From Gemmatales bacterium (GTDB lineage Bacteria; Planctomycetota; Planctomycetia; Gemmatales; HRBIN36), in NCBI GenBank assembly GCA_041640595.1, contig JBEPZY010000007.1, forward strand, positions 149,611 to 213,610: a stretch of DNA of 64,000 nucleotides, in the 5' to 3' direction. Shown here piece after piece: positions 31,169 to 64,000 of the stretch. The notes beneath the pieces were generated by a model. The model was not told the DNA's origin. It worked only from the letters and a program-made list of their open reading frames with translations, and searched no databases. The position numbers were made by a program, and so were the translations under genes. The first letter of the stretch is position 1; the number at the start of each line of letters is the position of its first letter.

Positions 31169-31177
31169 ACACCGAGC

Positions 31178-37325: not shown

Positions 37326-37406
37326 CCGCCAAAGCAGGCTTGAGTAACCTGTCGGATTCCACGAAAGGAATTGCTCCTATCAGCCGGCAGGCAGGAGGTC
37401 ACTACC

Positions 37407-41603: not shown

Positions 41604-41943
41604 GAGTGTTCCTCCGGTCTCCTTCCTATAGTTTACGACGAAGGGTCTCACCAAACAGTTCCCAGGGGCGCCATCCAGTTCGTGTTTGCAATGGGCGGCA
41701 TCGAAGCGTTTTTGAGGCCCGCTGTACATCCTTCCGGTTACTTTATCCGCCGGACTGGCAAGTTGCCGAGTGGGTCGGATTGAGAAATGGGCTGTTCGGG
41801 AGCGGGCCAATGTGGCGAAATCGCACTCTGCTCATACAATCACCGAAAAAGGTGCGGTGATCCGCGCCCTGACCGACCGCATTTTCTCATTGGAGACGTG
41901 TAGCCGGTTACGTGTGGAGAATCGACACGAGGAGGACAGCACA

Positions 41944-46336: not shown

Positions 46337-47248
46337 TCACGAAGTCAGCGTAAACCGTGGCAGGAGATCGCGTCGGCTGTCCAAGGCCTTCGCGGCTTCG
46401 TGTGCCGTAACAAATTTATAATTCCGTAAAAGCCGCTCCAATTTCTGTGGCATGCCTCCAATTCCAGTATAGGTACGCCAGCTCTTCCACCAACCCAGGG
46501 GTAACCTTGGCTGCTCGGTGTCAAATTCCCAAGGATGAAAATAGAGCATGACGTAACTCCCTTGATTCAACAACTGCCGGATCCCGCTCTCACAAACCGT
46601 TTCCGGCCAAAACCGAAAATGGCCGCCTCCTCCGATAGCTAAGCGTATAGGTCCTAACTGCAAAGTCGCTGGGGGTAACTCCAGCAGCTCCGCGTTCCCT
46701 GAAACAGCCACAAACGGAGTTCGCGGCGCCCGCGCCACCCCGTATCGGTCATGGATCACTGGATAAACCGAAGAATCGTAAGAAAATCCCAGGTCTCTCA
46801 AAAGGGCGATAACCCAGTTCGTCTCTTGTAAGATACTGAAACTCGGGGCTCGGAATCCCCATACCGGTTCTCCGAGAACATCTTCTAAGACCCTCTTGTT
46901 TTGTTCAACATCTTGATAAGCTTCCTCCGGGCTCATCTCGGTAAACAAACGATGGGACCAACTGTGGCAGGCTATTTCATGTCCATCGCGTCTTAGTGCC
47001 CGTACTAAATAAGGAAACCGCCAGGCTAGTTCACCAACCCAGAAAAAGGTAGCCTGTACATCGTATAGACCTAAAAGCCTTCTCAGCCATTTGACTTGGC
47101 AAAGCAAACGTTTCGCTAACTCCAGGCAATCGGAAGCAGTGAGCCGTACATGCCTCGCGGCCTGGATGTGATAGATAGCTTCTACGTCGAAACTAAGGAT
47201 CACCCTTCCAGGTGGTGCGCTTCGTGAATCTGATAATCGAGCGGTCAT
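46337..47248 (-). CDS. Polysaccharide deacetylase (XrtA-system-associated / DUF3473 type)
   Basis: SFDVE, ATFF, GHEIACHSWSH, GFRAPSFS, YDSSVYP..HDRYG and YFHPWE.D; ATGA overlap with the upstream gene. Confidence 0.9.
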   Translation of the reverse strand: MTARLSDSRSAPPGRVILSFDVEAIYHIQAARHVRLTASDCLELAKRLLCQVKWLRRLLGLYDVQATFFWVGELAWRFPYLVRALRRDGHEIACHSWSHRLFTEMSPEEAYQDVEQNKRVLEDVLGEPVWGFRAPSFSILQETNWVIALLRDLGFSYDSSVYPVIHDRYGVARAPRTPFVAVSGNAELLELPPATLQLGPIRLAIGGGGHFRFWPETVCESGIRQLLNQGSYVMLYFHPWEFDTEQPRLPLGWWKSWRTYTGIGGMPQKLERLLRNYKFVTAHEAAKALDSRRDLLPRFTLTS

Positions 47249-48306
47249 ACAGGTATTCCTCGTACTAACCATGGCCCTAGCCACTTGGTCAGCGGTAAGG
47301 GAAGCCTCTGCCACCATTTAATCAAGCTTTGAAAGCGTGGGTGCTCTTTTGCCCACTGAGAAGGCTCCTTGCGTCGGGCATAATAGTACCACGTCAGGGG
47401 TTGCTCGTATGTGCCCCATTGCTTCTTGAAACGATAAGAGCCACTCCCCGGAGTGCAACGTCCAAAATCGCAGATGTGGCTACCATGCTTGATGCTGTTC
47501 ACCATGAGATGCCAGTACAGAAGCATGTTAGCACAAGTATCACGCGCATCAGGTAGGCTCGCGGCCAACGGAATCTCACTAATCCCATTTCCATGTAAAA
47601 GGACCCCTCCAGCTAGCACTTGTCGCTCCCGCAAGACTAAGACAATCTCCATTCGCTCGCGAAAGTAGTGCCACATAGCCTCGAGGAAACTGAGCGGATA
47701 AACCGGCGTTCCTAAGTGTCGCATATTGACAGCGTATACATTGTAAAATGGGCGAATCAACTCTTCCCCTCCTGTGCGAACAAACAATTGCATCTTATGT
47801 GCTTTCCGGACCTGGTTCCTCACTTTGGAATTAAGCTGCTTCCATAGCTGTTCTTCACTACGCGGCAACTCACGTATCATGAGCACCTTATGGCCTATCC
47901 GCTTAGCAAAGCCGCTATCTTCTCCTACCCCACCGCCGCGTAGCTCCAGATAGTCAACATCTAGCTCTTCGGATAGCTGTAGAGTTACTTGGATTAAACA
48001 ACGCGATGCACTAACATCGCAAGCGTAAATGCCACCCCAGTTTACGTATGGCATGCTTATTAGGAAGTTGCCCATAAAACTCCGGATATTCACCAGCGGC
48101 AAAACACCTACCAGGTTTTCATGTTCCCAGACCGTGATGTAATAAGACCTATGCCCAAGACAATGCGCTATAATATCACACCAATAGCGCGATTGTGTGA
48201 CCCGCCAACCGCTTTTGCTTTTTTCATACTTTTCAAGTGCCACTAAACTCTCGCATTGATCAATGTACCGATATAAGCGCACAGCGCACATACAAAATCC
48301 CCGCAA
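47245..48306 (-). CDS. FemAB-like GNAT protein (XrtA/PEP-CTERM-associated type)
   Basis: GVLPLV...LISMPYVNWGG, KVRNQVRKA, NMRHLGTPVY and DFGRC..GSGSYRFKKQWG. Confidence 0.88.
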   Translation of the reverse strand: MRGFCMCAVRLYRYIDQCESLVALEKYEKSKSGWRVTQSRYWCDIIAHCLGHRSYYITVWEHENLVGVLPLVNIRSFMGNFLISMPYVNWGGIYACDVSASRCLIQVTLQLSEELDVDYLELRGGGVGEDSGFAKRIGHKVLMIRELPRSEEQLWKQLNSKVRNQVRKAHKMQLFVRTGGEELIRPFYNVYAVNMRHLGTPVYPLSFLEAMWHYFRERMEIVLVLRERQVLAGGVLLHGNGISEIPLAASLPDARDTCANMLLYWHLMVNSIKHGSHICDFGRCTPGSGSYRFKKQWGTYEQPLTWYYYARRKEPSQWAKEHPRFQSLIKWWQRLPLPLTKWLGPWLVRGIPV

Positions 48307-48312
48307 GGCAGG

Positions 48313-49446
48313 CTAACCGCGGGCTTTGGCGATGAGCCTGTCGTAATCGGCCGCAAGTAGTTGCATCCTTCTGTCAAAGCTAAACTCCCGTGCCACTCTT
48401 GCTCTTGCCGACTTAACCATTTTGTCTCGGATTGTTCGGTCGTCAAGAATCTGACGTACAGCCTGAACAATAGCTGAAACGTCATTACATGGTACTAACA
48501 TTCCATCTTCACAATGTCTTATCATGTTAGGAATCGCTCCTACCTTAGTGGCTATTACGGGTACCTCCATAGCCATTGCCTCTAGAATGCTATTGGGCAT
48601 GCCCTCCCGTAGGCTGGTACATAGATAAACATCCATGCATTCGAGCCACGGACGTACATCATGTTGGTATCCGGCAAAATAGACTCGTTGTGTTAAGCCA
48701 TGATGGCGGGCCTCACTTTCCAGGGAAGCCCTCAAGGGTCCTTCGCCTACAAATAAACAATAAATTGGATAGCCCTGCAACAATAATTGTGCCGCTGTTT
48801 TAAGTACAACATCCAGATTCTTTTCTTTAGCCAGTCGAGCTACGGTACCAATCCATATTCCACGAGCTTCGAGTCCTAATTCTTTTCGCGCATCGAAAGG
48901 TTCGCGCGATCGCTTATAGATGCCAACATCAATGCCGTTAGGTAGATAGCGCAGTGCTTGCGGTGAGACTCTGCATCGCTTGGCTTCGTGATATAGTTGC
49001 GGTGATACACAATAAATGCGATCATACACACTGAGAGAAGCTTTTTCCAAACAATAGTAAATGTCGAGTTTCTTGTTTCTGTCAACCCAGCCGTGCAGGG
49101 TGCCGGCCCTAACCATAGTAGAAAGGCGTCCTAATAATGCTCCAAGGACGTGGCTCTTATAGTCGTGGGCGTGGTAAATGTGGGGGCGAATATGCCTGAT
49201 GATTTTTTTCAACTGCGCGACGACGCGAAGGTCAAACGGTCCGCAGTCCGGAATCACTGCCACCTCGACCCCTCGCTCCCGCATTTCTTGAAGGCGACGA
49301 TAGGCATCGGTATCAGCAGGATCGCAGAGATAGGCGCACACCATGTGGTAGTCGTAGCGTTTGAGGTGATGATAGGAGAGGGTTAATGTTTTCTCAGGCC
49401 CTCCCCCAGTTCCGCGTAGCACCCTTACATCCAAGACCACACGCAT
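48313..49446 (-). CDS. Glycosyltransferase family 4
   Basis: GGGPEK, HAHDYK, PNGID and SLREGMPNSILEAMA. Confidence 0.92.
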   Translation of the reverse strand: MRVVLDVRVLRGTGGGPEKTLTLSYHHLKRYDYHMVCAYLCDPADTDAYRRLQEMRERGVEVAVIPDCGPFDLRVVAQLKKIIRHIRPHIYHAHDYKSHVLGALLGRLSTMVRAGTLHGWVDRNKKLDIYYCLEKASLSVYDRIYCVSPQLYHEAKRCRVSPQALRYLPNGIDVGIYKRSREPFDARKELGLEARGIWIGTVARLAKEKNLDVVLKTAAQLLLQGYPIYCLFVGEGPLRASLESEARHHGLTQRVYFAGYQHDVRPWLECMDVYLCTSLREGMPNSILEAMAMEVPVIATKVGAIPNMIRHCEDGMLVPCNDVSAIVQAVRQILDDRTIRDKMVKSARARVAREFSFDRRMQLLAADYDRLIAKARG

Positions 49447-49460
49447 GGGCAGGAGATCTT

Positions 49461-50618
49461 TCAGTTGGATGTTGCGAGTAATCCCAAATCATCGAGCCAT
49501 TCGAGGAACAATTTAGCTTTCGCTTGCCAACTTTCCTGCCTTAGCAGGTGCTGCCGCGCCTTCAATTGGTCATGCGACGGCGGCTGGTGAATCGCTGATG
49601 CTAAGCAGGATCTAAATTCCTCGACAGTGTCGCATAAATGAAGGAAACAATCCCATCGCTCCAGTGCTGGCAAACGGCGTGCCACTATAGGTTTCCCAGT
49701 AGCTAAATATTCAAGCAACTTGAGTGGCTGCATGGCTCGTGTTACCTCGTTGTCAGCGTACGGCATCATCAAAACGTCAGCGTACTTGGCAATTGTTGGC
49801 AGGCAATGCACCTGAACGGGACCGTGAACAACTATATTCCTGTACCGGCTTAAGGAATCTGGCTTATATTGAATCGGACCGACTAACACAAATGTGACAT
49901 CGGGCAATTGCGAAGCGGCTGAGAGGATCCAACTCCAGTCCAGCCGTTTGTCAAGTAGTCCCCACCACATCACCGCTGGTTTTTTTATAGGCACGGGACA
50001 AGGAGGATATTCATCGCGCGCGCTTCTCATCCAGGTGTCAAGGTCTATACCGTGGGTAAGCAGCCTGGCCGTTCTACCATAGGTGTGAATGTGGCATTGT
50101 AATGTGGAGCTGGCTGCAAGTAGCAGTCGGGCGCGGGTAATGGTTGCTGACTCGCAATTGCGAAGCGTGTGCCCGTCAAGACCCGGCCAGTCGGTGAAAT
50201 TATCCACGCAGTAATAAACCCAAGCGTTCACAGGGATAGTGTCCAGCCAGTACGCAGGAAGCGGTATTGCGGTTACCCCGATTAGTGGAGACGTTGTAGA
50301 TTGCATGTAGCGCTTTATTGATAGACTTATGGACCTGCTGTTTAATCGTTGGATGACCGGCGAACGCCAGTTCGGAATCAGGAATGGGTTGAGAACACGT
50401 ATTTTCGAATGCGAGGGAGTAGCTTTATGGGATTGGATAAACCAGTCTCTAAGTTTTTCAACAGCCCGTCTGCATGTATAAAGGTCGAATGCTGGCTTGC
50501 GCATGCCTATGGTGTTTATCCAGAGAACCTGATAACTGCGGACGAGCTCGCGGGCTAGATATTGCGCGCTCGAGGGATGCCGTCCCCAATCATCAGCAAA
50601 AAACAGGAAGGTAGTCAT
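49461..50618 (-). CDS. Glycosyltransferase (GT-B fold)
   Basis: FADDWGRHPSS, YYCVD, HGID and PLKLLEYLATGKP. Confidence 0.88.
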   Translation of the reverse strand: MTTFLFFADDWGRHPSSAQYLARELVRSYQVLWINTIGMRKPAFDLYTCRRAVEKLRDWFIQSHKATPSHSKIRVLNPFLIPNWRSPVIQRLNSRSISLSIKRYMQSTTSPLIGVTAIPLPAYWLDTIPVNAWVYYCVDNFTDWPGLDGHTLRNCESATITRARLLLAASSTLQCHIHTYGRTARLLTHGIDLDTWMRSARDEYPPCPVPIKKPAVMWWGLLDKRLDWSWILSAASQLPDVTFVLVGPIQYKPDSLSRYRNIVVHGPVQVHCLPTIAKYADVLMMPYADNEVTRAMQPLKLLEYLATGKPIVARRLPALERWDCFLHLCDTVEEFRSCLASAIHQPPSHDQLKARQHLLRQESWQAKAKLFLEWLDDLGLLATSN

Positions 50619-51756
50619 ATCTTTCTGTTCTTAGTGAGGTACCTAGCATTCGGTCGTATATGTCCGCGTATGCGTTTACTACTTTAGACCAGTTATGCCG
50701 GCTCAGGCAAACGAGTCTTCCCATACTACCCATAATAGTGCGTTGTTCAGGATGCTGTGCCAGGTGGATTAGATACTTACCTAATGCAACATTGTCACGA
50801 ATCGGCGCCACAAAACCTGTCTTGCCATGCTCCACTATCTCGGGAACAGCTCCGCACGCTGTGCTGACAACCGGCAAAGCACAACTCATTGCCTCCAGTA
50901 CGGTTAACGGCATGCCTTCACTGAGACTGGTTAGTAGGAAACAGTCAGCGGCATGATAGTAAGGTAGCGTATTAACCTGTTGACCTAATGGAATCACGAC
51001 CGATTGCAGGCCACGTTCATGAATAAATGCAAGTATACGGGAGCGCTCTGGACCATCTCCAACTAACAAAAGACGTGAATTAGAATGTGTTTTATACAAA
51101 TGCCCGAAGGCGGAGATGGCTGTGAAGTGGTCCTTGACTGGATCGAGTCGGGCTACGTGTACCACTACAAAGCAATCTGGCGGCAGACCTAATCGGGTGC
51201 GGACGCTAAGTTTCTCGGAGTTATGGGCAGGCGAGTAGAAAGCGGTGTCCACGCCATTAGGAACCACAGCTATACGCTGCCGAGGGAGTCCCTCATATCT
51301 GATAAGCGCATCCCTAACGGAATTGCTAACTGCTGTGATCCTGTCTTCGCTGCTAAGTAGCAGGCGGTTTGTCAAAACCCGGCGCATCTGGCGTTGGTCG
51401 GGAACAAACCGGCCGTGTTCAGTAAAGAGAATGGGAATGGAATTATACTGCAAGCGGGCTAGCAAAGCATAGGCAAACGGGGTGTATTGATGGGCGTGGA
51501 TTAGATTGCACTTGTGTTGCCGTAATAATCTAACAAGCTGCATGACGAGAACCGGGTCTATCCCAGGCTGACGACTCAAAGAATATACTGGAACACCCAG
51601 CCTGGTCAAGGTGTCTTGAAGAGGCCCGGTTCCGTCAAGGGATGCGATGATAAAATCGTAGGAGCTGCATAATGCTCTTATCAGCTTGCAAGCTAAGATT
51701 TCGGCTCCACCGAGCTGGAACGTATGCAGCAATACTAAAATTTTCTTGCGAGGCAT
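50593..51756 (-). CDS. Glycosyltransferase family 4
   Basis: GGAE, HAHQYTP, FTEHG, VARLDPVKDH and SEGMPLTVLEAM. Confidence 0.92.
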   Translation of the reverse strand: MPRKKILVLLHTFQLGGAEILACKLIRALCSSYDFIIASLDGTGPLQDTLTRLGVPVYSLSRQPGIDPVLVMQLVRLLRQHKCNLIHAHQYTPFAYALLARLQYNSIPILFTEHGRFVPDQRQMRRVLTNRLLLSSEDRITAVSNSVRDALIRYEGLPRQRIAVVPNGVDTAFYSPAHNSEKLSVRTRLGLPPDCFVVVHVARLDPVKDHFTAISAFGHLYKTHSNSRLLLVGDGPERSRILAFIHERGLQSVVIPLGQQVNTLPYYHAADCFLLTSLSEGMPLTVLEAMSCALPVVSTACGAVPEIVEHGKTGFVAPIRDNVALGKYLIHLAQHPEQRTIMGSMGRLVCLSRHNWSKVVNAYADIYDRMLGTSLRTERYDYLPVFC

Positions 51757-51858
51757 GAGATAGATGGCTCAGGCTGCTTTGTAAGTACGTAGGAGTTAGA
51801 GATAGGTTAGCATGCAGCGTGCCATAAGCGGGCATGATATCCGTGAAGCTGACCCGCC

Positions 51859-53859
51859 TTATCCCCACACAGGCCAGTGATCACCAATCTGTGTGTTAAG
51901 GGAGTGGACCGAGACAAAAGCGTTGAGATGAGAGTGAGCCCTGGAACTACTCAAAGCTCCGTATGGTTCATAAAGAGTGATGCCGCGCATCCAGTAATCA
52001 TGCCACCGGAACAAACAGTAAAGATTCCAGAGAGATTGCGCAAATTCTTTGTAGTCACAATCAAAGTGCCCCACAGTTTCTCTTATGGCAGCAGTGTTCA
52101 AGATGTGCTTCCATGGTGCTGAGTGAACGTAATCTAACAACGAGGGTAGGACGGCTCTCACCTGGTGAAACAATCCACGCAACTCGAAACCTTGTTTAGG
52201 AGCATCAATTACACTGGCGGGCAAGACGTCTCTATATGCCCGGCGCAATAATCGTTTCGTGGTAGCGTAATGAAGCTTTTGATCCGGAGGAAGAACCCAG
52301 GCCCATTCAACGAGTTTATGGTCTAACAACGGCGGTCTGATTTCCAGGCCGATTGCCATACTGGCCCGGTCAGCTTTGACAAGGAATGCTTCCGGTAAAA
52401 GGAATTGTAAATCTACGTGAGCCATTCGGGAAACTGGGTGTTTCAGTGGGCTATCATTCCATAGCTGTGATAACCGTTTTAAGTCCTCGTGTAATACCTG
52501 GTTCAACTCAGGAGTAAGCCAGGTGTGTAAGAGGTCAGGTGAAGTCTGCCCGAGTGATATTGCATAAGCCAGACCATCATCTAAGTCGAGGCGATTGATT
52601 GCCCGGGCTGCCTTGCGCAGGTATCTAAGTCCATCGTACGATGTTAACCGAGATAGCTGGAATTGCTTTAGCAACTTTATGGCTCTCCTAAAACTTCTGC
52701 TCAACAAGTGTTCAATGCGATTGATGGTATATCTGCGATAACCCCAGAAGACCTCGTCACCACCATCGCCCGTAAGAAGAACCTTGACGTAGTCACGTGC
52801 ATTGGCCGTCAGAACATGCAACGGTAAAATGGAGCTATCACCCAATGGCTCGTCTAAGGCAGAAATAACGTTATCGAGCGGATTGGTTTTTGGCCTCGGT
52901 GGATCTAGGGAGATGTGTTCTATCTTCAAATGGCGTGTGGTCAATTGTGCCCGAGTAAATTCTCCATCCTGGCCATAGTCGCGGTCCCAGTTGATAGTAA
53001 ATACTACAAGGGGCGTTTTTTGTACAAATGAAGCGTGGTACGCAATTATGGAAGAGTCGAGTCCACCGCTCAGGGCGACGCCGATGGGCACGTCTGACAG
53101 TAAGTGTGCCTCAACTGCCTCTCCTATTCTCTCGCGAACATGTTTAGCAGCATCTTTCAGGGCATAATTTAGCGTATTTGTAGGAGGTTTCCAATACCGT
53201 TTTATTTCCCAGGTCCGTGAGGTTACACAAAAAGACAGGCAATGCGCGGGTTGCAGCTTTCGGATATGCATGTACGGAGAACGCCATGGCGGAAAACAGC
53301 CGTAGTAGAGAAAACTAGGAACGCTATCCATATCCATCATAACCGGAAGCAATCCGGTGGCAAATATAGCCGATGGCTGTGATGCGAACAGTAACTTGTC
53401 ATGTGTAATGGCGTAATAGAGGGGCTTGATCCCTAACCGATCGCGGGCTAAGAATAGGCATTTGCGACGGCTGTCCCAGATCGCAAATGCAAACATGCCA
53501 CGCAATTCAGACACCAGTTCTGGGCCAAGTTCCTCGTATAGGTGAACAAGTACCTCCGTGTCGGTTTTAGTCTTGAATATATGTCCTTTGCTCTGTAAGT
53601 AGTGTCGCAATTGAGGGCTGTTGTATATTTCACCGTTGAAGGAGACTACGATAGTTCCATCTTCATTGACGAGAGGTTGATGGCCATTTTCTGGGTCCAA
53701 TATTGCAAGGCGAGTGTGCACTAATAAAGCAGATTCATCCGACCAGACCCCCCAACCATCCGGGCCGCGGTGGCTAAGCGCACGGATACATGCCTTAGCA
53801 ATGCGCGTCTTCGGAAGGTGGCCGAGATGGTGAGATACGATGCCGGCAATACCACACAT
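51859..53859 (-). CDS. asnB: Asparagine synthase (glutamine-hydrolysing)-like amidotransferase
   Basis: MCGIAG, HRGPD, FNGEIYN, ARDRLGIKPLY, LSGGLDSS and GDGGDE.F.GY; context favours glycan amidation. Confidence 0.9.
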   Translation of the reverse strand: MCGIAGIVSHHLGHLPKTRIAKACIRALSHRGPDGWGVWSDESALLVHTRLAILDPENGHQPLVNEDGTIVVSFNGEIYNSPQLRHYLQSKGHIFKTKTDTEVLVHLYEELGPELVSELRGMFAFAIWDSRRKCLFLARDRLGIKPLYYAITHDKLLFASQPSAIFATGLLPVMMDMDSVPSFLYYGCFPPWRSPYMHIRKLQPAHCLSFCVTSRTWEIKRYWKPPTNTLNYALKDAAKHVRERIGEAVEAHLLSDVPIGVALSGGLDSSIIAYHASFVQKTPLVVFTINWDRDYGQDGEFTRAQLTTRHLKIEHISLDPPRPKTNPLDNVISALDEPLGDSSILPLHVLTANARDYVKVLLTGDGGDEVFWGYRRYTINRIEHLLSRSFRRAIKLLKQFQLSRLTSYDGLRYLRKAARAINRLDLDDGLAYAISLGQTSPDLLHTWLTPELNQVLHEDLKRLSQLWNDSPLKHPVSRMAHVDLQFLLPEAFLVKADRASMAIGLEIRPPLLDHKLVEWAWVLPPDQKLHYATTKRLLRRAYRDVLPASVIDAPKQGFELRGLFHQVRAVLPSLLDYVHSAPWKHILNTAAIRETVGHFDCDYKEFAQSLWNLYCLFRWHDYWMRGITLYEPYGALSSSRAHSHLNAFVSVHSLNTQIGDHWPVWG

Positions 53860-53886
53860 ACAATGATCGCAAAATTGCGGCGTCTT

Positions 53887-56800
53887 CTATGCCGGGTTCC
53901 ATTCGATGCTTATAGCGTCCACCACGGGAGTAGTATTGGGGACTGTCGAAAGCAGAGTCAGTGTATATTGCAAATAACGTGCCGGCGGATTCAGAATTGT
54001 ACCGTCTGGAGCTACGTTGGCCCAGGCAGACCAGGATTCATCTGGCGTGGGTGAATTACCAGTGCGTGTTTCAATAACGACGGAAGTACCGACGGGTTTA
54101 TTTCCTGACCAGGCTAATTTCTGCCATGCTGCTAATTGTCCTGCGTCAAAGATCCGAGAGAGATAACTGCCACTGGCCGGGTAGTCCATCGTCTCAACCC
54201 AGTCGGCAATCAGAGGATTGGTTCCATAGAAGTCTGAGAGGGCAAGTTTATATGCGACATTTGGTGGTAACTGGGCGGCCAGCGAGGCGACTAAACTTCC
54301 GTCAATGTAAAAATCTATGCGCCCAGTCGAAGGAATTATGCGGTATTGGTGCGTGCCAGTCGGTACGCTACCCAGGTCTTGTTCTAGGATGTTTCCGAAT
54401 ATGTTGAGTCGAGCAAGTAAGCGGGCACCATCCGGGCTTGTTCCGAACAAAATCCACACATTTTGGCGCGGGTCACCTAACCCTGTTGCCAACCCGAAAT
54501 GCTGGTATCCAATCGGCGAGAAAGTCAGTGCAGCTTGAGTGCCCACCAGATTGACAGGCTGAGTGGAGAGAATGCCGCTGCCGCCAAGGATGAGCTTCCC
54601 GTTATTCAAGTTCAAGGTAACCGGGCCGCCGCCAACAGTCGTCCAGGAATGATGTGTCCATCGGGTGCTAAGTATAGGTTCCTCGAAGTCATCATTTATG
54701 GTGCCAGCTAACTGAAGTTCGCCATCAGCGCGTTTCGTAGCGGTAACAAGTGTTGCTTGGCCTGATAGAAAGTCAGTATAGGAGGTATCAAGAAATCTTT
54801 GTGTTTCTCTAGTGCGGTACCGTAAACTAATATCGTGAAGAATAGGCGAACGCACTGGGTTAGTTGTGTTGAAGGCGATGCGGTATTGTGCATATCGGCC
54901 AAACAAACCGGGATTGGCCCCAACCGTGTTTATAGCAACAAAGTCGGACCAGGAAGAATCTACATGAGGTGTCGGACCCGCACGGATGGATATCTCTAAG
55001 CTAGTGTTTTGCGGAAGATTAGCCAACCAGCTAACCGCCGTCCAATAAGCATCCGTGCCGGCATCTAAAATTGCCGAAAAATATCTTCCGCTATTTGCGT
55101 ATGTGCCAGCGCGAATCCAATCCACCATTATTGGACTATTTTCAGTAGTATAATCACTGGCAGTCACACGGAGAGGCTCACTAATGCTGATGTTGTGGGC
55201 TGCTACAAGAGTACCATCAATATAATAGAGCACCTGGTTGCTCAGCCACTCTATTCGATAGACGTGATACTGGCCGAACCAATTGCCGGGGATTGTGGTA
55301 TTGATAGCTCGGTTGGAAATCGCGGTTCTTGCTAATAACGATTCACCATTGCCAGTGCTAAAAATTGCCCACCCGGAAGTGACAAGGTCCTGGGCAACAC
55401 CGAAGTGTTGATAAGGTCCACCTGTGAAAAGAACTTTGCCTTCAATAAACTGCCCGCTTGATACACTTTGCGAACTGAAAATAGCTGAGCCGTCTAAAAT
55501 CAACGATCCCTGCTGAATCGCAAGCTGGCCGTTTGGCTGCCAGCTTCTAGTGTTCCACGTTGATGTTAGATTACCTGTATCGAATTCATCGGAAATTGAT
55601 GGCCGTAAACTAAGAGCACCGTCACCGTCTCCAACGGTCACAACGTTGTCAAATGTTCCATTGGCAAAGTCGGTTACCGTTGTATGAGTTAGCTCATTTT
55701 CGTTTCCAGACGAAGACAATGAAAACGCCCAACTCTCAGCCGCTGACATTTGGTTACCTTGAAGATCGGCAACACTACGAACAGTGACTAAATAGGTGGC
55801 GCCTGGGCGAAGGTCTTCCTGAGGAGTTAATGTAACCACATTTGCCCTTACGGCTAAAACGGCATTCACACGAACACCTGAGCCGGAGTCTATCAGTGCT
55901 ATATTTGTAGGACTAACAGAAGCAGCATCCAGCAGTTCATTGAATGCAACGCGAATCTGAGGACGAGTGGTGGTCACGGTTTCATCTGGTCCTGGCTCTC
56001 GGGACACTATAAATGGACCATAACGATCGTTGCTGGCGGGGCCCACATCAAAGGCAACGACTCGAATAATCGGTACCTCTTGCAATGATTGCGGATTAGA
56101 CGCCGTGACGACCAATTTATACTGCAGGTAGCGTGAGGTCGCTTGTGTGTTAAATCCGGAATAGGGAACAGGGATGAAATCTGTCCAAGTGTCATCAGGG
56201 ATGGGAGTGTTGCCCATTCGAACATAAACCGCTATGGAAGTATTACCAGGAGTCTCCGCATCCCAAGCAAGACGCTCCCAAAGCACTCGCTGCCCCGCGT
56301 CAAATATACGGGAAAGAAACTCACCCCTCTCAGCATAAGGGCCAAGCTGTAACCAGTCAATTTCCAGGGCTGTATTGTCGCTGGTATAGTCACTGGCGAC
56401 TATCGCAAGTCGTGTGGTACCTGGTGAAGAATGTTCAGCAACTAATATGCCGTCTATGTAGTACTTTATGCGGCTAGAACGTATTTCAATGCGAAAAGTA
56501 TGGTAAGAACCAAGCCATTGAGGGCCTAAAAATGTTTCCTGGCTGGTGCCGGAGTAAGACCGTGCATATAGGCCATCGCCTGCTCGGGTGCTAAATATGA
56601 ACCAGGGTCCGAAGTTGAGGTCAGTTGCAAGTCCTATGTGCTGATAGGGACTGGCGGTGAACCGAGCACGAAATTGTAAAGTTAGATTACCGGAAAATAT
56701 CGTATCTGTGCTGAGCATAACGGCATCTAATCGAACAACGCCGTCGCGGATGATAGTGCTGCCGCTGGGCGACCAGGTAGTAACCCTAAGTCCGGAAGGC

Positions 56801-59145
56801 AGTAGATCGCGGGAAAAGTCAGCTGAGAATGTTGGTCTAGGGATAACTTCACCATTTTCTAGAGCAACTACCATTATACCAGAATCGGGAGAACCTTGTT
56901 GGAAATCCAAAGCATTATCATCAGCGAAACTAGCGGTCCGGAAGGTTGCTACTCCAGCAGAAGGATACCAACTGCGGTTGCCCCTCTGATCAGAGGAAGC
57001 CAGACGATAATAGTAGGTGGTGTTCGGGATCAGGTTCTGTAGGTAGATTGCATGGTCGGTTGCAAAATCGTTTAGTGTTACAGATTGCTGTAGATTTTGC
57101 GGATCCGGCCCATAGAAGACTACTGCATCGCTAGTTTCATCTGTCCGCCAGAAAATTGTGGCTGAGCGAGCTCCAACATTTGTGCGAACATCGCTGATAA
57201 CGGGAGGACGAGTATCTTCGGCACTTATGGTGATAATGACAGGAGTACTGGCTGGCCCGATGTTGACACTGTCGTCTATAGCACGGGCCATCAGGCGATA
57301 AGTTCCTGGGCCTGGAGGCATCCACACATAAGTCCAGTTGTTAGTTCCTTGAGCGGGATGCCAGGTATTACCGCCGTCCCAGGAGACTTCGACACCTGCC
57401 ACAACCCCTCCACCGGAATCACTTGCTGTGCCAGAAAGAGTAACCGGGATGTTTGGTGGGAAACTGCTGTTTGTATCCATAACTATATTAGCAACGGGTG
57501 CCTGTTGGTCCGTGCTAGGAAGAGCGAACACTAAATCGGGCTGCAAAGTAGCAGGTTGGACGCCCATGTCAGCGAGTAAGTTAACCGTTGCCTGTTGAAT
57601 ACGTCGGTCCGGTGGACTATAGGGGCCATCGTGCTGATCATCTAATCCCCACACCCATTGGACTGTGCCCGCACTGAAGACCAGGGCACCACTTGTGGCG
57701 CGATATAGGGTCAGGCTATGTGTTGCCGTCCCAGGTGCCACAGTTCTTCCGTAGTCAATGAGTTTTTGAGGAACCTGTTGAGTAGTTGAAGACAATCGAA
57801 TTTGACCTGGAGGTCGAAATCCATTGTCCAGGTCTTCGTTCCATTCGTAACCGAGTGTATATTGGCCCAGGTAAGCTATTTGTCCTGGCCCAAGATTCTG
57901 AATATCAGTATTGCGCCAGACGCGCAGTTGGCGAAACTCATAGGGCACTTCGATGGGCGTGCCAACTTCGTTAGGCCCACGGTTAACCGTAAAGATTGTT
58001 CCGCCCAACATATTTTCGGGCTTACCACCGTCCGCTGGAGGACTAAAGCGTGGGTCTCTCCACAGACCGGTCCAGACGTTAGGTAAAGGATCGATTTTAG
58101 CATCAGCCAGGGATTCTTTATAACAAACGAGCGTCCTGTAAGGAGTGCCCGAACCATCAATGGAAGCCTCCCAGCGAGTCTTCCAGTAAATGTTGTTACC
58201 AGCTAAAAACATAATATGGACACCGGCATCGCGAGCAGCTTGCACGTTTTGCCACATTTCTGCCGACCAGTACTCATCGTGGCCAACGGAGATGAATACC
58301 TTGTGCTCCTTGATTTCATTACCCAACCGGGCGGTGTCAACGTTAGTGAAGTAGCTAACATTATAACCATTCTTTTCCAACCATCGCACCATAGGATATT
58401 CAGCCCAGAACACGAAATTAGCTTCGCCATCGCCAACTCGGCGCGAGCGAGTGTCGAATGGACGATTATAGCTCACTTTATAAGCGCGACGCCCTCCGCT
58501 TGAAAGGTAGTCATAGAGGCTCTTACCGCCCCAGGAATTATATGCCTGCCAGGTGGCATCAGAGGTTTGCATGAGAATGTCCGAACGACCATCGTCATCT
58601 CTTACGACAAAATAAATGTGGCTGGCTCCTCTACTCCCGTCCAAACGTGTGAGTTTTGCGAAGTAAATACCGGAGACCGCGTTGCTGGGAACCTGCCACG
58701 TAACGGTCGTTCGCCAGTTTCCTGCATCTACCAGCCCTGTGGTCGTATCAACAAGAGGATTAGGTTGGGTTTGTGGCCGCCTTAGACGCATCGTAATAGA
58801 ATCAATTTTTCTGGCCCCGAGACCCCCATAATAGCCAAGACGATAAATGTCAATGGTATAGTTTGTGGAATCGGTGTTTATTTTGAAACCTATCGTCTGT
58901 CCTTTGTTTACACTTATATCCGTCGCATATCCCTGGATACTTGGATCCCCGGACCCGACGATGCCCCATTCGGACATAGGACTTCCTAGTTTCTGGTTTT
59001 CCAACACTATAGGGTTCACAGCTAGGAGTGTGCGTTCTTCTAGGAATTCCACCAATAGCCTTGCAAGATGCACGTCTTTCTGTTTAGGACTATTAGCTAG
59101 AAGCGCTATTAGGCGGCGTAGCACACCTTTTAAGGGGATCATCAT
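53887..59145 (-). CDS. 1752-aa protein: RLxxExLExRxLLA leader, DMF-amidase-beta-like (DUF6605-type) domain, Ig/FN3 domains, three lectin/jelly-roll repeats
   Basis: RLLVEFLEERTLLA; TWQAYN.WGG.SLY, VSYNRP, GHDEYWS and VFSAGTVQW; GVEVSWDGG; three repeats with YQHxGL...HxYRI...YIDG...SRIFDAG...RYLQY; GAGGAG RBS. Confidence 0.85.
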   Translation of the reverse strand: MMIPLKGVLRRLIALLANSPKQKDVHLARLLVEFLEERTLLAVNPIVLENQKLGSPMSEWGIVGSGDPSIQGYATDISVNKGQTIGFKINTDSTNYTIDIYRLGYYGGLGARKIDSITMRLRRPQTQPNPLVDTTTGLVDAGNWRTTVTWQVPSNAVSGIYFAKLTRLDGSRGASHIYFVVRDDDGRSDILMQTSDATWQAYNSWGGKSLYDYLSSGGRRAYKVSYNRPFDTRSRRVGDGEANFVFWAEYPMVRWLEKNGYNVSYFTNVDTARLGNEIKEHKVFISVGHDEYWSAEMWQNVQAARDAGVHIMFLAGNNIYWKTRWEASIDGSGTPYRTLVCYKESLADAKIDPLPNVWTGLWRDPRFSPPADGGKPENMLGGTIFTVNRGPNEVGTPIEVPYEFRQLRVWRNTDIQNLGPGQIAYLGQYTLGYEWNEDLDNGFRPPGQIRLSSTTQQVPQKLIDYGRTVAPGTATHSLTLYRATSGALVFSAGTVQWVWGLDDQHDGPYSPPDRRIQQATVNLLADMGVQPATLQPDLVFALPSTDQQAPVANIVMDTNSSFPPNIPVTLSGTASDSGGGVVAGVEVSWDGGNTWHPAQGTNNWTYVWMPPGPGTYRLMARAIDDSVNIGPASTPVIITISAEDTRPPVISDVRTNVGARSATIFWRTDETSDAVVFYGPDPQNLQQSVTLNDFATDHAIYLQNLIPNTTYYYRLASSDQRGNRSWYPSAGVATFRTASFADDNALDFQQGSPDSGIMVVALENGEVIPRPTFSADFSRDLLPSGLRVTTWSPSGSTIIRDGVVRLDAVMLSTDTIFSGNLTLQFRARFTASPYQHIGLATDLNFGPWFIFSTRAGDGLYARSYSGTSQETFLGPQWLGSYHTFRIEIRSSRIKYYIDGILVAEHSSPGTTRLAIVASDYTSDNTALEIDWLQLGPYAERGEFLSRIFDAGQRVLWERLAWDAETPGNTSIAVYVRMGNTPIPDDTWTDFIPVPYSGFNTQATSRYLQYKLVVTASNPQSLQEVPIIRVVAFDVGPASNDRYGPFIVSREPGPDETVTTTRPQIRVAFNELLDAASVSPTNIALIDSGSGVRVNAVLAVRANVVTLTPQEDLRPGATYLVTVRSVADLQGNQMSAAESWAFSLSSSGNENELTHTTVTDFANGTFDNVVTVGDGDGALSLRPSISDEFDTGNLTSTWNTRSWQPNGQLAIQQGSLILDGSAIFSSQSVSSGQFIEGKVLFTGGPYQHFGVAQDLVTSGWAIFSTGNGESLLARTAISNRAINTTIPGNWFGQYHVYRIEWLSNQVLYYIDGTLVAAHNISISEPLRVTASDYTTENSPIMVDWIRAGTYANSGRYFSAILDAGTDAYWTAVSWLANLPQNTSLEISIRAGPTPHVDSSWSDFVAINTVGANPGLFGRYAQYRIAFNTTNPVRSPILHDISLRYRTRETQRFLDTSYTDFLSGQATLVTATKRADGELQLAGTINDDFEEPILSTRWTHHSWTTVGGGPVTLNLNNGKLILGGSGILSTQPVNLVGTQAALTFSPIGYQHFGLATGLGDPRQNVWILFGTSPDGARLLARLNIFGNILEQDLGSVPTGTHQYRIIPSTGRIDFYIDGSLVASLAAQLPPNVAYKLALSDFYGTNPLIADWVETMDYPASGSYLSRIFDAGQLAAWQKLAWSGNKPVGTSVVIETRTGNSPTPDESWSAWANVAPDGTILNPPARYLQYTLTLLSTVPNTTPVVDAISIEWNPA

Positions 59146-59181
59146 CGTCTCCTCAGCTGTAATCCTGCTGGACGACTAAGA

Positions 59182-59802
59182 CTATGATGCCGGCTGTGAA
59201 GTCTGCGAGCAAGTGTTTTTGCGATGTCGTATGATTCTGGCAGGATTGCCAGCCACTATGCAATAAGGAGGCACTGGCTTAGTCACGACGGCCCCGGCAC
59301 CCACGATGCTATGTTCTCCGACATCGGCCATAACGATGGCCCTTTCACCTATCCACGCACCATGTCCGATGTGGATAGTAGGCCAGATTCCCGGCTGCTC
59401 GCAAATCCTTCGGCTGGTATCATCAAAACCGTGTTGCCTACCGCCATTAATGATGGATGCGTGGCTGGCTATGAGAACGTCATTTCCAATATGTACCTTA
59501 CCAATACTGCATCCAGGCCCGATATACACGTTGTCTCCTATAACATTACTGACGTGCGAAAAAAGTGTCCCCACTCCTATATAGAGGTTCTCTCCGGTGT
59601 AGTCAAAGCTCCATGAACAAAGTACGTAGCGAGCCACAGCGCCAAGAATACCTGGCCAGAATGCAACTACCTCATAGGTTTCTCTGAATGCTCGGTCTTT
59701 GTCAAAGAAGATTAAGAGGACCCGGCTCCAACACCAGAGGGGCAGAAGCAGAGAGGCAATTATGGCTTTGAAAAGCCGTTTCAGGATCAGCTTAGTGGTC
59801 AT
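59182..59802 (-). CDS. Hexapeptide-repeat acyltransferase
   Basis: [16 protein letters not shown] and [21 protein letters not shown]. Confidence 0.92.
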
Positions 59803-60979
59803 AGTCTTTAAAAAGACTCCTTAAAATAACCCGAGCTTTAGGGATGAGAACGTTCCAGTCGAAATAACGCTCGACCCAGCGACGTGCGAAAGTAGCCATG
59901 CCCGCTAGGCGGGTTTTATCCTTGTAAAATCGAATAATCGCTTTGGCTATATTCACCGGATCGGTACAATCTACGACCAATCCGCTCCTCCCGGGTACTA
60001 ATGTTTCCTTCGTTCCTCCAGAATTTCCGCACAGTATAGGCTTGCTGCAGGCCTGAGCTTCGAGAAGCACGATGCCGAACCCCTCACAGTCGCCATCTAT
60101 CTCGCGATTAGGCAATGCTACTAAATCAGATTCTCGATACAGTTGAAGCAACTGGTCGTCAGTGGGATTGGAAATCCATCGTATCGAACCATCCAGTGCC
60201 AGTTCGTTGGCTAACTTGCGAAGGTAATGAGCATCGTCACCGTTACCAGCCAGAATACACCTTATGTTAGGAATGTCTTTACGCACAAGGGCAATAGCTC
60301 GAAGCAACATGTCTTGCCCCTTGCGGCGTTGAAACCGACCTGGGCATGCTATGGTCAACATTAGTCTTTCACATCTATGATGCGACGGGCAAAAGTAATG
60401 GGTATCGACTCCGGGATGTAAAATCCGGACACGACGCGATGGCACTTGCCATTTGTTCACCAGCAGGTCACGGGTAAAGCGGCTGTTGGCTACTAATAAC
60501 GCAGCTTGCCGTAGGGTTGGTCTGACCAGATGATAATATTCCCGGCATCTCCAGGCTATTTCGATATCCTCACCGTGAACATAACATAGGTAGGGAATGC
60601 CAAAAATACGGTTAAGCGTCCAACAGACGAATCCTTCAGGAATACAGCGACCGGCGTGAATAACCGAAGAGTGTGTGTGGTAATAGACTTGTGAAGTGAA
60701 ATAGAGTAAGCGAGAATAAGCAAGCCAATTCCGGTAGCTCAAGAGAGTCCAGGAACGCAACGGCCAGTGTATCGAAATAACTTCGAGATGTGGGCAGCGG
60801 ATAACATTATCCGCACCTGTCAAGATGGTGACAAAGTAATCCTCTAGCCGACTATATACGTTATACAGCCACCTAGGCACACCTCCGACGTGAGGGGGGA
60901 AATGCTCAGTCAGCAGAAGTATTCTAGAATGCATGGTCGAGTGCAAGTGGACAATTTCTGAGGTGTACTTATGCGCCAT
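59792..60979 (-). CDS. Glycosyltransferase family 4
   Basis: [20 protein letters not shown] and [12 protein letters not shown]; start may be 60934. Confidence 0.92.
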
Positions 60980-62225
60980 GCTTCTTATGTGTTTCCAAAA
61001 CGTAAGCATAAAACCGCATTAGCTTGACGGTGTAATAAGAGCCCGAATAGTGATAGTGGGCATATTCACAAACGGCTTGTCTTATACGGTCAAGGGGATA
61101 TTCGCAAGCTTCAATAATTGCATGGGCCAGAGCGAAAGGATCGCCGGGACGGACACGCCACCCTGTGATTCCCGGAATTATTGTCTCACTAAGCCCATCT
61201 ATATCAGAGACGATCGCCGGGACCCCGTAGCTTGCTGCCTCAAGAGGAATCCGACCCAGTGGTTCTTCTAAAGATGGAACAATGACGACATCGAAACCTC
61301 GGTATAGCCAGCTCATGTCGGTTTGTTGAGGTAAAAAAGTTACCTTGCCCACGCTCAGCAGCTCACGCAATAGCTTATATGTCTTGTAGTCCGAGGTCGA
61401 ATGCATACCATTGCGGATACCAACGATGCATACGTGAATCGGATGTTTCTTGACCATGGTTACAGCGCTTAGAAGCGTAGCTATACCTTTCTGGGGTGTA
61501 AATTGTCCAGCAAACAAAAACAATCTATCGCCAGGAGACACACTCAATGTGCGACACAGATCGCGCCGGTAAGCGTCTCTTCCATTCATGGTCTCATGCG
61601 ACGGTATTCGTACCGGGTTATAGAGGGTAATTGACAGGACATTCTGAGCGGCTGTGTGAGAGAGAAGGCATGCTCGCAGGTAGTTACTTACACAAATAAT
61701 GCCTGTTGGCATTGGCCGCAGGTACCATTCAATGGTCTTTCGGGTAAAGCAATCGCGAAGATGGCATACGGAAGGGATGCCCGCCTTGTAAGCAGCAGCG
61801 GCAGTAATGGGGTTGACCCAGATCTGATTCGCGTGAATCAGCTGGATGTCATATTTCTCAACGATCCGGACTAGTTGTCGGGAGTTGAGTTTAACACTTA
61901 GTGTGCCATAACGATTAGTTGGCAGCAAATCACATGGTAGCCAGCGTATCCCACTCTCCTTACACCAGGACGCCATGGGTGAGTATCGAGGGGTAGCGAC
62001 AATGACATCAATTCCGAATCGTTGTAAGGATGACACCGTGATTTGTAGTGACTTTTCGGCACCACTAATAAAGGGCGCTTCAGTCACGAATAAGATGCGT
62101 GTTGAGGGCGACAGCGACATGGGATCCCGAAGAGCGCACGTCTCATACCAAGGGAAAAACTCTTCATGGTCCGCAGGTGGGACAGTTATAGGGATAAGTG
62201 AGGTCGGTAAAGTCATGTGTATCAT
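60969..62225 (-). CDS. Glycosyltransferase family 4
   Basis: SGAEKS, PQKG and EPLGRIPLEAA; start uncertain. Confidence 0.88.
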   Translation of the reverse strand: MIHMTLPTSLIPITVPPADHEEFFPWYETCALRDPMSLSPSTRILFVTEAPFISGAEKSLQITVSSLQRFGIDVIVATPRYSPMASWCKESGIRWLPCDLLPTNRYGTLSVKLNSRQLVRIVEKYDIQLIHANQIWVNPITAAAAYKAGIPSVCHLRDCFTRKTIEWYLRPMPTGIICVSNYLRACLLSHTAAQNVLSITLYNPVRIPSHETMNGRDAYRRDLCRTLSVSPGDRLFLFAGQFTPQKGIATLLSAVTMVKKHPIHVCIVGIRNGMHSTSDYKTYKLLRELLSVGKVTFLPQQTDMSWLYRGFDVVIVPSLEEPLGRIPLEAASYGVPAIVSDIDGLSETIIPGITGWRVRPGDPFALAHAIIEACEYPLDRIRQAVCEYAHYHYSGSYYTVKLMRFYAYVLETHKKHGA

Positions 62226-62377
62226 GCGCTGAGATGCAAAAATATAAACCGGAATGTGCTGGTCTTGATGTAATAATGCGTGGGTTCCTTGCGTGCTCTG
62301 GCGGTCCTAAGATAGCAGTAGGAAGATCGGTAGACTTAGCATTGACTGAGGACTAATCTTCTAAGCGACTTTAGGAC

Positions 62378-63286
62378 TTAAGCAGCGGATTTTATGAGCC
62401 GGACAAGTTTATCTGGAATTAGGCAGCGTAGGAGGAGCTGCCAATTACGAAACTCCGAGGGATTACGTATTACCGCCTTGAGCAGATGCGGCAGCGCTCG
62501 TGATCTGGGTTCATGGTACGTAATGTAATCATAGAATCCATTTGCGAATTGCCGCATAGAGGAGGCAATGGACCGGGCACTCAATCCGACGCGTTCCAGC
62601 AGTAACCTAGCTCTTTTTGCCACGAGAAGTTTTGCACGACAGATATCCAGGCACATCTTGGAGATGTTTTTTGTCATCTGATCAGGGTGTCGTCGGTAAT
62701 AGGTTAACCGCTGTGGAATATAGACAAATGGTCCCAATGCTGCTAGTCGCCACCACAATTCCCAGTCATCGGCACCCCAGAGATGGCTCTCTTCTCCTCG
62801 AACACGAAACCAGGCCTGGCGGCGGATCATCACGGTAGATGGAAAAATATAGTTACGTTGCCACAGTTCCCGCAACAAATCCACTCTCGTTCCTACCGGG
62901 TAGTGATAGGCCCGTTGCTGTGGAGGGATATAGGTGATTTGTGTGAAACAGAGAGGAGCGTGAGGGTATTTATCAAGGGCATCCTCTTGAATAGCAATCT
63001 TCTCAGAATGCCAAACATCGTCAGAATCTAACAACGCAAAAAATTCACCACGGCATAGTTCTGCGGCAAGGTTACGTGCCGAAGGAAGGCCACGGTTTAC
63101 TGTCCTATATATGCGTATTTCTAAATCTTTATAGCTTCTCGTCAGTGTAACCGGAACCCGTGAACCGTCATCAATGATGATTACTTCCCTTACCGGGCGA
63201 GTCTGAGCTGCTACGGATTCCAGTGCCTCATGTAGATAAGCTTGGGTATTATACACAGGAATAATCACGCTTGTCCTAGGTGTCAT
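62378..63286 (-). CDS. Glycosyltransferase family 2
   Basis: SVIIPVYN, IIDDGS, NRGLPSARN and LDSDD. Confidence 0.93.
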   Translation of the reverse strand: MTPRTSVIIPVYNTQAYLHEALESVAAQTRPVREVIIIDDGSRVPVTLTRSYKDLEIRIYRTVNRGLPSARNLAAELCRGEFFALLDSDDVWHSEKIAIQEDALDKYPHAPLCFTQITYIPPQQRAYHYPVGTRVDLLRELWQRNYIFPSTVMIRRQAWFRVRGEESHLWGADDWELWWRLAALGPFVYIPQRLTYYRRHPDQMTKNISKMCLDICRAKLLVAKRARLLLERVGLSARSIASSMRQFANGFYDYITYHEPRSRALPHLLKAVIRNPSEFRNWQLLLRCLIPDKLVRLIKSAA

Positions 63287-63307
63287 GCTCTAATCTACTC
63301 ATGTATT

Positions 63308-64000
63308 TTATCCAGAGAAAGCTGGCGAGCCTGCTTTCGAGGAAATGCACTGCCAGTGTGCAGATTCGTGGAAGACCCCAAATTCACGACTGAGCAGGGG
63401 ATGTGATACTAAGATGTGCGGGCCCTTAACCGCGGTATAGAGTTTGTTGAAATCGTGATCCCAAATCAGCACATCCAGACGGTAACTATCAGCCACCCAT
63501 CGCACTTGGGGAATGGTCAGGCTGACGTGGATATCGTCACCTTCCGTGGGAAGATAAAAATTGTCAAGGCGGGAACTATAAGCACAACATGGCAAACCGT
63601 CCTGGCGAATCACACTAATGACGACATTGGCTAGGGAAGGGGTTTCTCTGCAACGCAAGTGCACATTTATTGTGAGAGAGTTTCCGTAAGTGAAATAAGT
63701 CGTAGGTTTACCTGTCGCATCCTCTACTTGTATGTCCACGACGCGGAATGCTTCCAGGTGTTCACGGCTCGTAACTGGTAAGGCCCATTCCGGCGTACAT
63801 AAATACGAGTGTTTTTCGTAGAGAGCCATACCAGTCGTTGGATCGCCATCGTAATAAAGGCGACCATGTCGAAAATACAAGACCCGACTGCATAATGCTT
63901 TGATGAAGAAAAGGTTATGGGAAACCAGAAGAATTGTCGCATTCCGTCGGCGTAGTGCGTCGAGGATGCGACTGCATTTCTGTTGAAAGCGAAGGTCTCC
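63308..64000 (-). CDS. wzt: Polysaccharide ABC exporter ATPase (Wzt-type) with C-terminal Wzt_C domain; 5' end off window
   Basis: Frame is open to the window edge: GDLRFQQKC...TILLVSHN...ALCSRVLYF, then a beta-rich C-terminal domain. Confidence 0.88.
   Translation of the reverse strand, partial: GDLRFQQKCSRILDALRRRNATILLVSHNLFFIKALCSRVLYFRHGRLYYDGDPTTGMALYEKHSYLCTPEWALPVTSREHLEAFRVVDIQVEDATGKPTTYFTYGNSLTINVHLRCRETPSLANVVISVIRQDGLPCCAYSSRLDNFYLPTEGDDIHVSLTIPQVRWVADSYRLDVLIWDHDFNKLYTAVKGPHILVSHPLLSREFGVFHESAHWQCISSKAGSPAFSG

Follow-up and report, generated by a model that had tools for sequence, protein, structure and literature searches.

We analyzed a 64,000-nucleotide stretch of the genome of a Gemmatales bacterium (contig JBEPZY010000007.1, positions 149,611 to 213,610; hereafter the window) that encodes a 1752-residue large surface protein with a short conserved N-terminal leader and, at 15–22 kb, a triad of genes. 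The triad comprises a fusion of a RiPP recognition element (RRE; RiPP, a peptide made by the ribosome and then modified post-translationally) with an M50 site-2 protease (S2P) and a membrane fusion protein, together with two further adaptors. The motif is probably what is recognized in a non-hydrophobic export leader that is later cleaved off, and the triad the core of a single machine serving all of the ~29 leader proteins of this genome. We base the link between leader and triad on their co-occurrence, on operon linkage in Proteobacteria, on the clustering of leader subtypes on the protease tree and on the exchange of the leader for a Sec signal among homologues.

The leader motif RLLVEFLEERTLLA corresponds to residues 29–42 of the 1752-residue protein and maps exactly to positions 59020–59061. 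An earlier note on this DNA had described extracellular-type domains, no Sec h-region and a motif directly before the first folded domain, and each of these points was borne out. The conserved domain region starts at Val43, where the alignments of homologues begin, and the Pfam domain DMFA2_C spans residues 97–504. In the first 45 residues the best 12-residue Kyte–Doolittle mean was 1.35, so that a Sec h-region is absent, while residues 5–18 resemble an amphipathic helix (hydrophobic moment 1.72). The protein contains no Tat (twin-arginine) motif and no GGxGxD repeats of the RTX type; a C-terminal, uncleaved signal of the type I secretion kind may yet be present. Readings of the protein as a Sec, Tat or RTX substrate were dropped for want of an h-region with AxA, a twin-arginine motif or RTX repeats. 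The likeness to the planctomycete extracellular N-terminal motif that had been pointed out also held, as the consensus LxxExLExRxLLA, the N-terminal position, the extracellular domains and the lack of a Sec signal all fit. The leader scored 17.2 bits (E 0.004) against PF07595, under the Pfam gathering score of 25.5, and NF012209 (LEPR-XLL, cut-off 17 bits) did not match the protein; a joint profile of both leader types scored it with E 6e-6.

The motif recurs near the N-terminus of ~29 proteins on at least eight contigs of this genome. A regular expression for the leader returned 28 matches within the N-terminal 140 residues of long frames (0–2 in each of 20 shuffles) and 7 in the later 1.13 million residues, and the frequency of the motif thus exceeds chance. 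None of the proteins of this genome passed the PF07595 cut-off. At motif position 7 the other 28 leader proteins have Pro, whereas the 1752-residue protein has LLA instead; this variant, taken with the low GC content of the gene's surroundings, suggests that the gene was acquired. Given ~29 leader genes in 4.45 Mb, the chance of finding one within 40 kb of the triad is P = 0.41, so the shared window is no evidence of a link, as the earlier note had itself cautioned, and proximity was dropped as an argument.

The N-terminal domain of the 735-residue fusion aligned with the lasso peptide RRE TfuB1 (6jx3) in a profile match at E 1.9e-6. An AlphaFold2 model of the fusion (pLDDT 87) had site-2 proteases and leader-bound RREs as its best structural matches, none of them at E ≤ 0.001; the best protease fold was 3b4r (E 1.1e-3). 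The modelled RRE reached target TM (template modelling) scores of 0.74–0.77 to TbiB1 and TfuB1 and fits the three-strand, three-helix PqqD fold. The HExxH motif was present in 66 of 67 homologous frames, NxxPxxxxDG was found by regular expression in 61 of them, and the zinc ligands His, Glu, His and Asp are invariant in 54 aligned rows of the family. As judged from model and alignment, the RRE fold and the intact S2P zinc motifs are confirmed. Among NCBIfam models the fusion matched the daptide protease NF041824 best, with 183.8 bits (cut-off 300) and E 5e-54 across 375 residues. Adjoining genes encode adaptors, an aldolase and a diadenylate cyclase, and a daptide ELExMEAP precursor and Dmp-forming enzymes are absent from the triad cluster. 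The GAF adaptor is a conserved partner of the fusion; relatives have an adaptor of 700–860 residues at the position of the WD40 adaptor (17468–19717). In two assemblies (G216:C1:456035-457751; L041) the fusion is broken over several frames, reflecting either sequencing error or decay. Candidate partners are encoded elsewhere in the genome: six TolC-type (OEP) genes and one DUF3467 gene, all unlinked to the triad, and a short SecA of 717 residues on contig C6. The latter has DEAD and preprotein-binding domains and lacks SecA_SW. In a tree of 13 rows that included one canonical SecA, it grouped at 92/95 support with short SecAs of its class that are triad-linked. It does not lie beside the adaptors, being on another contig here, and no short SecA was found in the triad stretches of 25 close relatives.

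To relate leader and fusion across the phylum, we used 200 evenly drawn Planctomycetota genomes and called the fusion at E < 1e-30, which separated 57 fusion genomes from 143 without it. The curated and independent model NF012209 matched in 28 of the 57 and in 3 of the 143, the latter three matches lying mid-frame or lacking the core motif. With looser searches and inspection of the triad neighbourhoods, a leader was found in 50 of 57 fusion genomes and a clear one in none of the 143, the fusion-positive genomes being searched harder than the negatives and effort being balanced for 21 matched negatives only. These 21 triad-negative members of mixed families showed no clear leader at E ≤ 0.3, with two ambiguous matches (G108, G178). 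In 12 of the 14 mixed families the leader tracks the fusion (sign test P = 2.4e-4), and in the other two the positive genome shows no leader. The earlier note had connected the motif to the triad and had named the existence of many motif-bearing genomes without triad as the contrary finding. No clear N-terminal leader occurred in the 143 triad-negative genomes, and the proposed connection gains further support from the plasmid loci, the subtype tree and the Sec exchange described below. Among 60 relatives, which had supplied no training rows, leaders were present in all 60 and the fusion in 59, the exception being a genome that is 66% complete; as these are close kin, they demonstrate retention and do not count as independent events. 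Given kinship and the mobility of the loci, leader and triad might be found together for reasons of common descent or of joint transfer of surface-protein islands, without interacting physically. We regard this as extremely improbable: the pattern is kept within the mixed families, the leader subtype tracks the protease clade, and the 59 relatives retain the triad as a single unlinked copy while their leader genes are dispersed.

Outside the phylum, 132 plasmid records matched the fusion, among them 18 Escherichia and 8 Citrobacter records. From the best matches we hand-picked 16 plasmid loci for taxonomic spread, and 12 of these encode a leader-bearing large protein upstream of the fusion: those of Methylosinus, Thalassospira, Variovorax, Pseudosulfitobacter, E. 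coli, Sinorhizobium, Azospirillum, Mesorhizobium, Niveispirillum and Burkholderia, and, on a weaker basis, Pontibrevibacter (from annotation only) and Rhodobacteraceae M382 (inferred across the record origin). The E. coli plasmid NZ_CP081687.1 (L016) combines the SecA-less subtype with a leader-bearing Ig-like (immunoglobulin-like) giant. TolC is encoded in several plasmid operons and SapC in one of those inspected. The triad operon and the annotated plasmid operons yielded no ABC transporter. A type II secretion system (T2SS) cluster follows one plasmid locus, and another locus lies near an ABC-type type I secretion system (T1SS). Such neighbours, the ABC/FtsX pair 9 kb from the triad and the DEAD and preprotein-binding domains of the short SecA would fit a scheme in which the triad merely reads and cuts the leader, as leader peptidase or quality control, and translocation is left to SecYEG and the short SecA followed by the T2SS, or to a separate ABC T1SS. 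We consider this unlikely, because the protease itself is fused to a periplasmic adaptor, two further adaptors go with it and the operon often includes TolC, an architecture that fits a trans-envelope conduit; moreover, the lack of the SecA_SW domain speaks against a Sec/T2SS route.

On a FastTree phylogeny of 50 RRE–M50 domains, the three leader subtypes required 3 changes as opposed to a shuffled mean of 11.4, a count that rests on 27 labelled rows in which kin share labels. The LExRxxxD/DUF4347 subtype, mostly without a short SecA, forms one clade (support 100) spanning planctomycetes and alpha-, beta- and gammaproteobacteria. DUF4347 leader proteins predicted from the tree were found in all five unlabelled genomes tested, mostly beside the fusion; G105 is an exception, with a leader of the LExRxxxD/DUF4347 type beside a SecA-bearing locus. 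SecA proteins bind signal peptides, and a short SecA adjoins the fusion in many genomes. The short SecA and not the RRE might thus read the leader, leaving the RRE–M50 part for regulation or another substrate. This appears highly improbable in view of a whole clade that keeps leader and RRE–M50 without a SecA in the locus, of five genomes (G087, G132, G146, G159, G181) with one SecA match only, and of a leader subtype that tracks the RRE–M50 tree. A phylum-wide search for the short SecA did not separate it cleanly from canonical SecA (matches were split), and adjacency was used instead.

Leaders were also observed on short open reading frames (ORFs) of ~60–110 residues, five in G095 (L227:1357-1638(-), L229:1378-1689(+), L234:1270-1614(-), L241:1222-1611(-), L245:1342-1695(+)) and one in G165 (L169:13965-14174(-)). 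They are scattered, some are Cys-rich, none has an NCBIfam match, and by sequence they look like RiPP precursors. The proteases of these two genomes lie near an adaptor-less actinomycete RRE–M50 protein in the tree, at a position flagged for long-branch attraction. Gly/Pro-rich leader proteins of ~200 residues without a Pfam match are encoded directly 5′ of the GAF adaptor at L161:4129-4863(+) (G131) and L183:3392-4156(+) (G028).

The leader ends where the first domain begins and stands in for the Sec signal peptide of homologues. When the 1752-residue protein and its 120 best homologues were compared in the first domain, 36 had the leader, 63 had a hydrophobic N-terminus and none had both. 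A conserved Glu-Asn follows motif position 7 after a spacer of exactly 7 residues in 31 of the 35 leader proteins in which this distance could be measured. Six linker-less Sec-type homologues (P0085, P0086, P0102, P0118, P0119, P0123) have an Ala-x-Ala site that ends 6 residues before Glu-Asn; this register was read by eye, a regular expression for Sec cleavage sites being too crude. The Sec-type spacing aligns Ala42 with the –1 position, whereas the daptide cut after ELExxxxx, with the Leu-Glu pairs aligned, would fall after Leu41. By analogy, the daptide register predicts cleavage at Leu41/Ala42 and the Sec-signal register cleavage at Ala42/Val43, giving a putative mature start at Ala42 or Val43. 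The residue after the Leu41 equivalent is small in the 36 leader proteins (Ala 23, Ser 8, Thr 3, Asp 2). The leader is carried by no solved structure. Alternatively, the leader could be an uncleaved or late-cleaved retention module within the exporter, and the protease would free the protein on a GAF-sensed signal, in the manner of LapA and LapG. The conservation of the GAF adaptor and the recovery of many T. immobilis leader proteins in the fraction extracted by sodium dodecyl sulfate only (PMC8567305) are compatible with such a role. We nevertheless think it very unlikely, since the motif runs right up to the first domain and stops where a signal-peptidase site would be, and the leader also occurs on the ~60–110-residue peptides, which have no adhesin role.

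Returning to the leader as a cleavable export tag read by the triad, we propose the following sequence of events. The cytoplasmic RRE of the fusion would quite likely bind the leader at LxxExLExR, in the manner of RREs acting on RiPP leaders. It is reasonably likely that the fused zinc site-2 protease would then cut just past the motif, at one of the two bonds named above. We infer both direct binding and cleavage by homology to the daptide proteases. Whether the protein would next thread, led by its N-terminus, through a channel formed by the M50 membrane domain, the three adaptors and a TolC-type protein, with no ABC transporter taking part, is an even call in our judgement. In this lineage the short SecA on contig C6 would probably act as an optional motor; from a sister subtype that SecA is missing.

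Several observations weigh against this proposal. Besides the uneven search effort, seven of the 57 fusion genomes yielded no leader (G035, which is complete, G057, G107, G111, G143, G175 and G193), and four of the 16 plasmid loci lack one (Phyllobacterium, Magnetospirillum, Indioceanicola and Cupriavidus, where the start of the giant was unread). Raw PF07595 matches (E ≤ 0.01) did not discriminate before antisense matches were taken out, occurring in 9 of 57 fusion genomes and 9 of 143 fusion-free genomes. The joint profile A1 matched in 37 of 57 versus 11 of 143 at E ≤ 0.01 and in 31 of 57 versus 0 of 143 at E ≤ 2e-4, but 25 of its 31 strong-match genomes had contributed training leaders and the latter threshold was picked afterwards. 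Neither the short SecA nor most of the leader genes are linked to the triad, here or in the relatives. The proposal would require an M50 domain to serve as a pore for giants with folded domains, and a 2026 Chlorochromatium preprint, with LEPRxLL on two giants, proposed C-terminus-first export via SapC, TolC and HlyD.

On inspection, none of the 11 fusion-free A1 matches had a clear N-terminal leader, and the nine fusion-free PF07595 matches ran antisense to housekeeping genes, fell in the middle of a frame or sat in very small frames. PF07595 alone was set aside as a poor probe, having no cut-off match in this genome and 9 of its 18 positive genomes without triad. Antisense frames of genes repeatedly mimic the leader (L045, L054, L097, L118, L127, L130; L044, L046, L052, L053); the host genes are presumably NuoF/hydrogenase and Dxr, as named from motifs. 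One such mimic (G155) passes the PF07595 cut-off, and the mimicry constitutes a trap for six-frame searches. The complete genome G035 (L149, L150) has the fusion and one SecA match, no GAF adaptor detected beside the fusion and no leader, and is a decaying or repurposed system.

Table 1 Positions of leader, passenger and triad features in the window
Feature	Position	Strand	Remark
ORF of the 1752-residue large surface protein	53887-59145	(-)	translated frame
Conserved leader motif, residues 29–42, LxxExLExRxLLA type	59020..59061	(-)	proposed RRE recognition sequence
Leader residues 1–28, amphipathic helix and basic/polar linker	59062..59145	(-)	without Sec h-region or Tat motif
Ribosome-binding site GAGGAG	59149..59154	(-)	just 5′ of start codons
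Passenger, residues 43–1752: DMFA2_C, Ig-like, FN3-like and GH16/ConA-like domains	53887..59019	(-)	without RTX nonapeptide repeats
Low-GC exopolysaccharide/glycosyltransferase cluster containing the leader-bearing gene	46337..64000	(-)	GC 49% vs 57.6% for the genome
RRE–M50 site-2 protease–membrane fusion protein, 735 residues	15189..17396	(-)	single copy in genome
RRE (PqqD-like) domain of the fusion, ~residues 15–105	17082..17354	(-)	TfuB1 6jx3 match, model
HExxH zinc motif HEFGH, residues 213–217	16746..16760	(-)	invariant in family alignment
NxNPxxxxDG motif	16446..16475	(-)	with third zinc ligand Asp316
Membrane fusion protein with inserted WD40 propeller, 749 residues	17468..19717	(-)	
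GAF–membrane fusion protein, 692 residues	19736..21814	(-)	from GTG

Around the leader-bearing gene, the cluster at 46337–64000 contains genes usually tied to XrtA/PEP-CTERM loci, a FemAB-type gene above its cut-off and an amidotransferase and a deacetylase below theirs. Between this cluster and the triad, the window encodes an ABC ATPase and a 1223-residue FtsX-type permease (30467-34849 (+), 9 kb from the triad), which look unrelated to it, a NapC/NirT cytochrome with a cytochrome c552 (36831-38876 (+)), resembling an NrfH/NrfA pair, and an 875-residue protein (39183-41810 (-)) with no Pfam match and a weak caspase-like match (E 3.5e-6).

Motif and module have each been published. The planctomycete extracellular motif PF07595 (RRLxxExLExRxLLA) goes back to Studholme 2004, as cited in PMC8567305. 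In T. immobilis, 52 leader genes were reported, 20 of them seen by proteomics, 8 of the 10 longest proteins belong to the leader class, and the study put the motif forward as a new export signal (PMC8567305); the accessible text of that study names no exporter, receptor or cleavage site. The 1752-residue protein shares consensus and position with the PF07595/NF012209 leader, although its score is below both cut-offs. Independently, Kamneva, Poudel and Ward 2015 (PMC4452313) described a secondary SecA_DEAD/T1SS-related locus, for which they proposed a secretion role with M50 as pore and SecA as motor, allowing for unlinked SecA cases. Their module of M50-HlyD, GAF-HlyD, a further HlyD and a short SecA without wing/scaffold, with no ABC transporter, matches the present one, apart from the short SecA, which is unlinked in this genome, and the WD40 propeller that one adaptor carries. 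The main text of PMC4452313 contains no PqqD, leader, adhesin or Planc_extracel and hence names no substrate, RRE or signal; the accessible text of a preprint on giant genes (10.1101/2023.11.21.568195) contains no LEPR, M50 or HlyD. The earlier note mentioned neither the short SecA, DUF3467 and the TolC-type proteins nor the locus description of 2015. Our literature search, with subscription papers outside its reach, found no paper joining motif and module. New here are the phylum-wide presence/absence test, the leader/Sec exchange with its cut-site prediction, the subtype clustering and the short-peptide substrates.

PF07595/LEPR-XLL proteins have lacked an assigned export route ever since their motif was put forward as a signal, and the pairing would give both motif and module a function. 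It would also account for the exit from the cell of a family that counts some of the largest proteins of bacteria among its members, the leader class including a 36,806-residue Chlorobium symbiosis protein (2026 preprint). The prediction is specific as to the receptor domain, the catalytic glutamate and, to within two residues, the cut site. With one exporter for ~29 substrates, a single deletion should strip much of the surface proteome, and the copy on E. coli plasmids offers a tractable laboratory system.

Type I secretion systems include peptidase-containing ABC transporters that cut N-terminal leaders. The present system resembles T1SS in its HlyD-type adaptors (three here), its TolC-type channel and a proposed leader removal coupled to export, but differs in that the inspected operons lack an ABC transporter, a C39 peptidase is missing, the adaptors number three, the signal is N-terminal and the 1752-residue protein has no RTX repeats. 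We are evenly divided on whether it constitutes a distinct secretion type with RiPP logic, in which an RRE would read the acidic LExR leader, a fused S2P would remove it and an ABC-free multi-adaptor/TolC conduit would export substrates of ~60 to more than 30,000 residues in Planctomycetota and Proteobacteria, including on E. coli plasmids. A coupling of cleavage and export has a parallel in the M50 protease EpeP, which is thought to cleave and export its peptide (PMC10885120). The daptide protease MpaP is an RRE-fused intramembrane site-2 protease, and daptide precursors have an acidic Leu-Glu motif, ELExMEAP, directly after which the products are cut; cleavage by MpaP itself is stated and not shown in vitro in the accessible texts (10.1101/2023.03.08.531785, 10.1101/2025.07.11.664356). 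The present protein is likewise an RRE–M50 fusion, but unlike MpaP it has a fused periplasmic adaptor, mostly large unmodified substrates and an invariant Arg in the leader. The origin of such a secretion type may lie in a peptide-processing protease of the daptide kind to which an adaptor was added.

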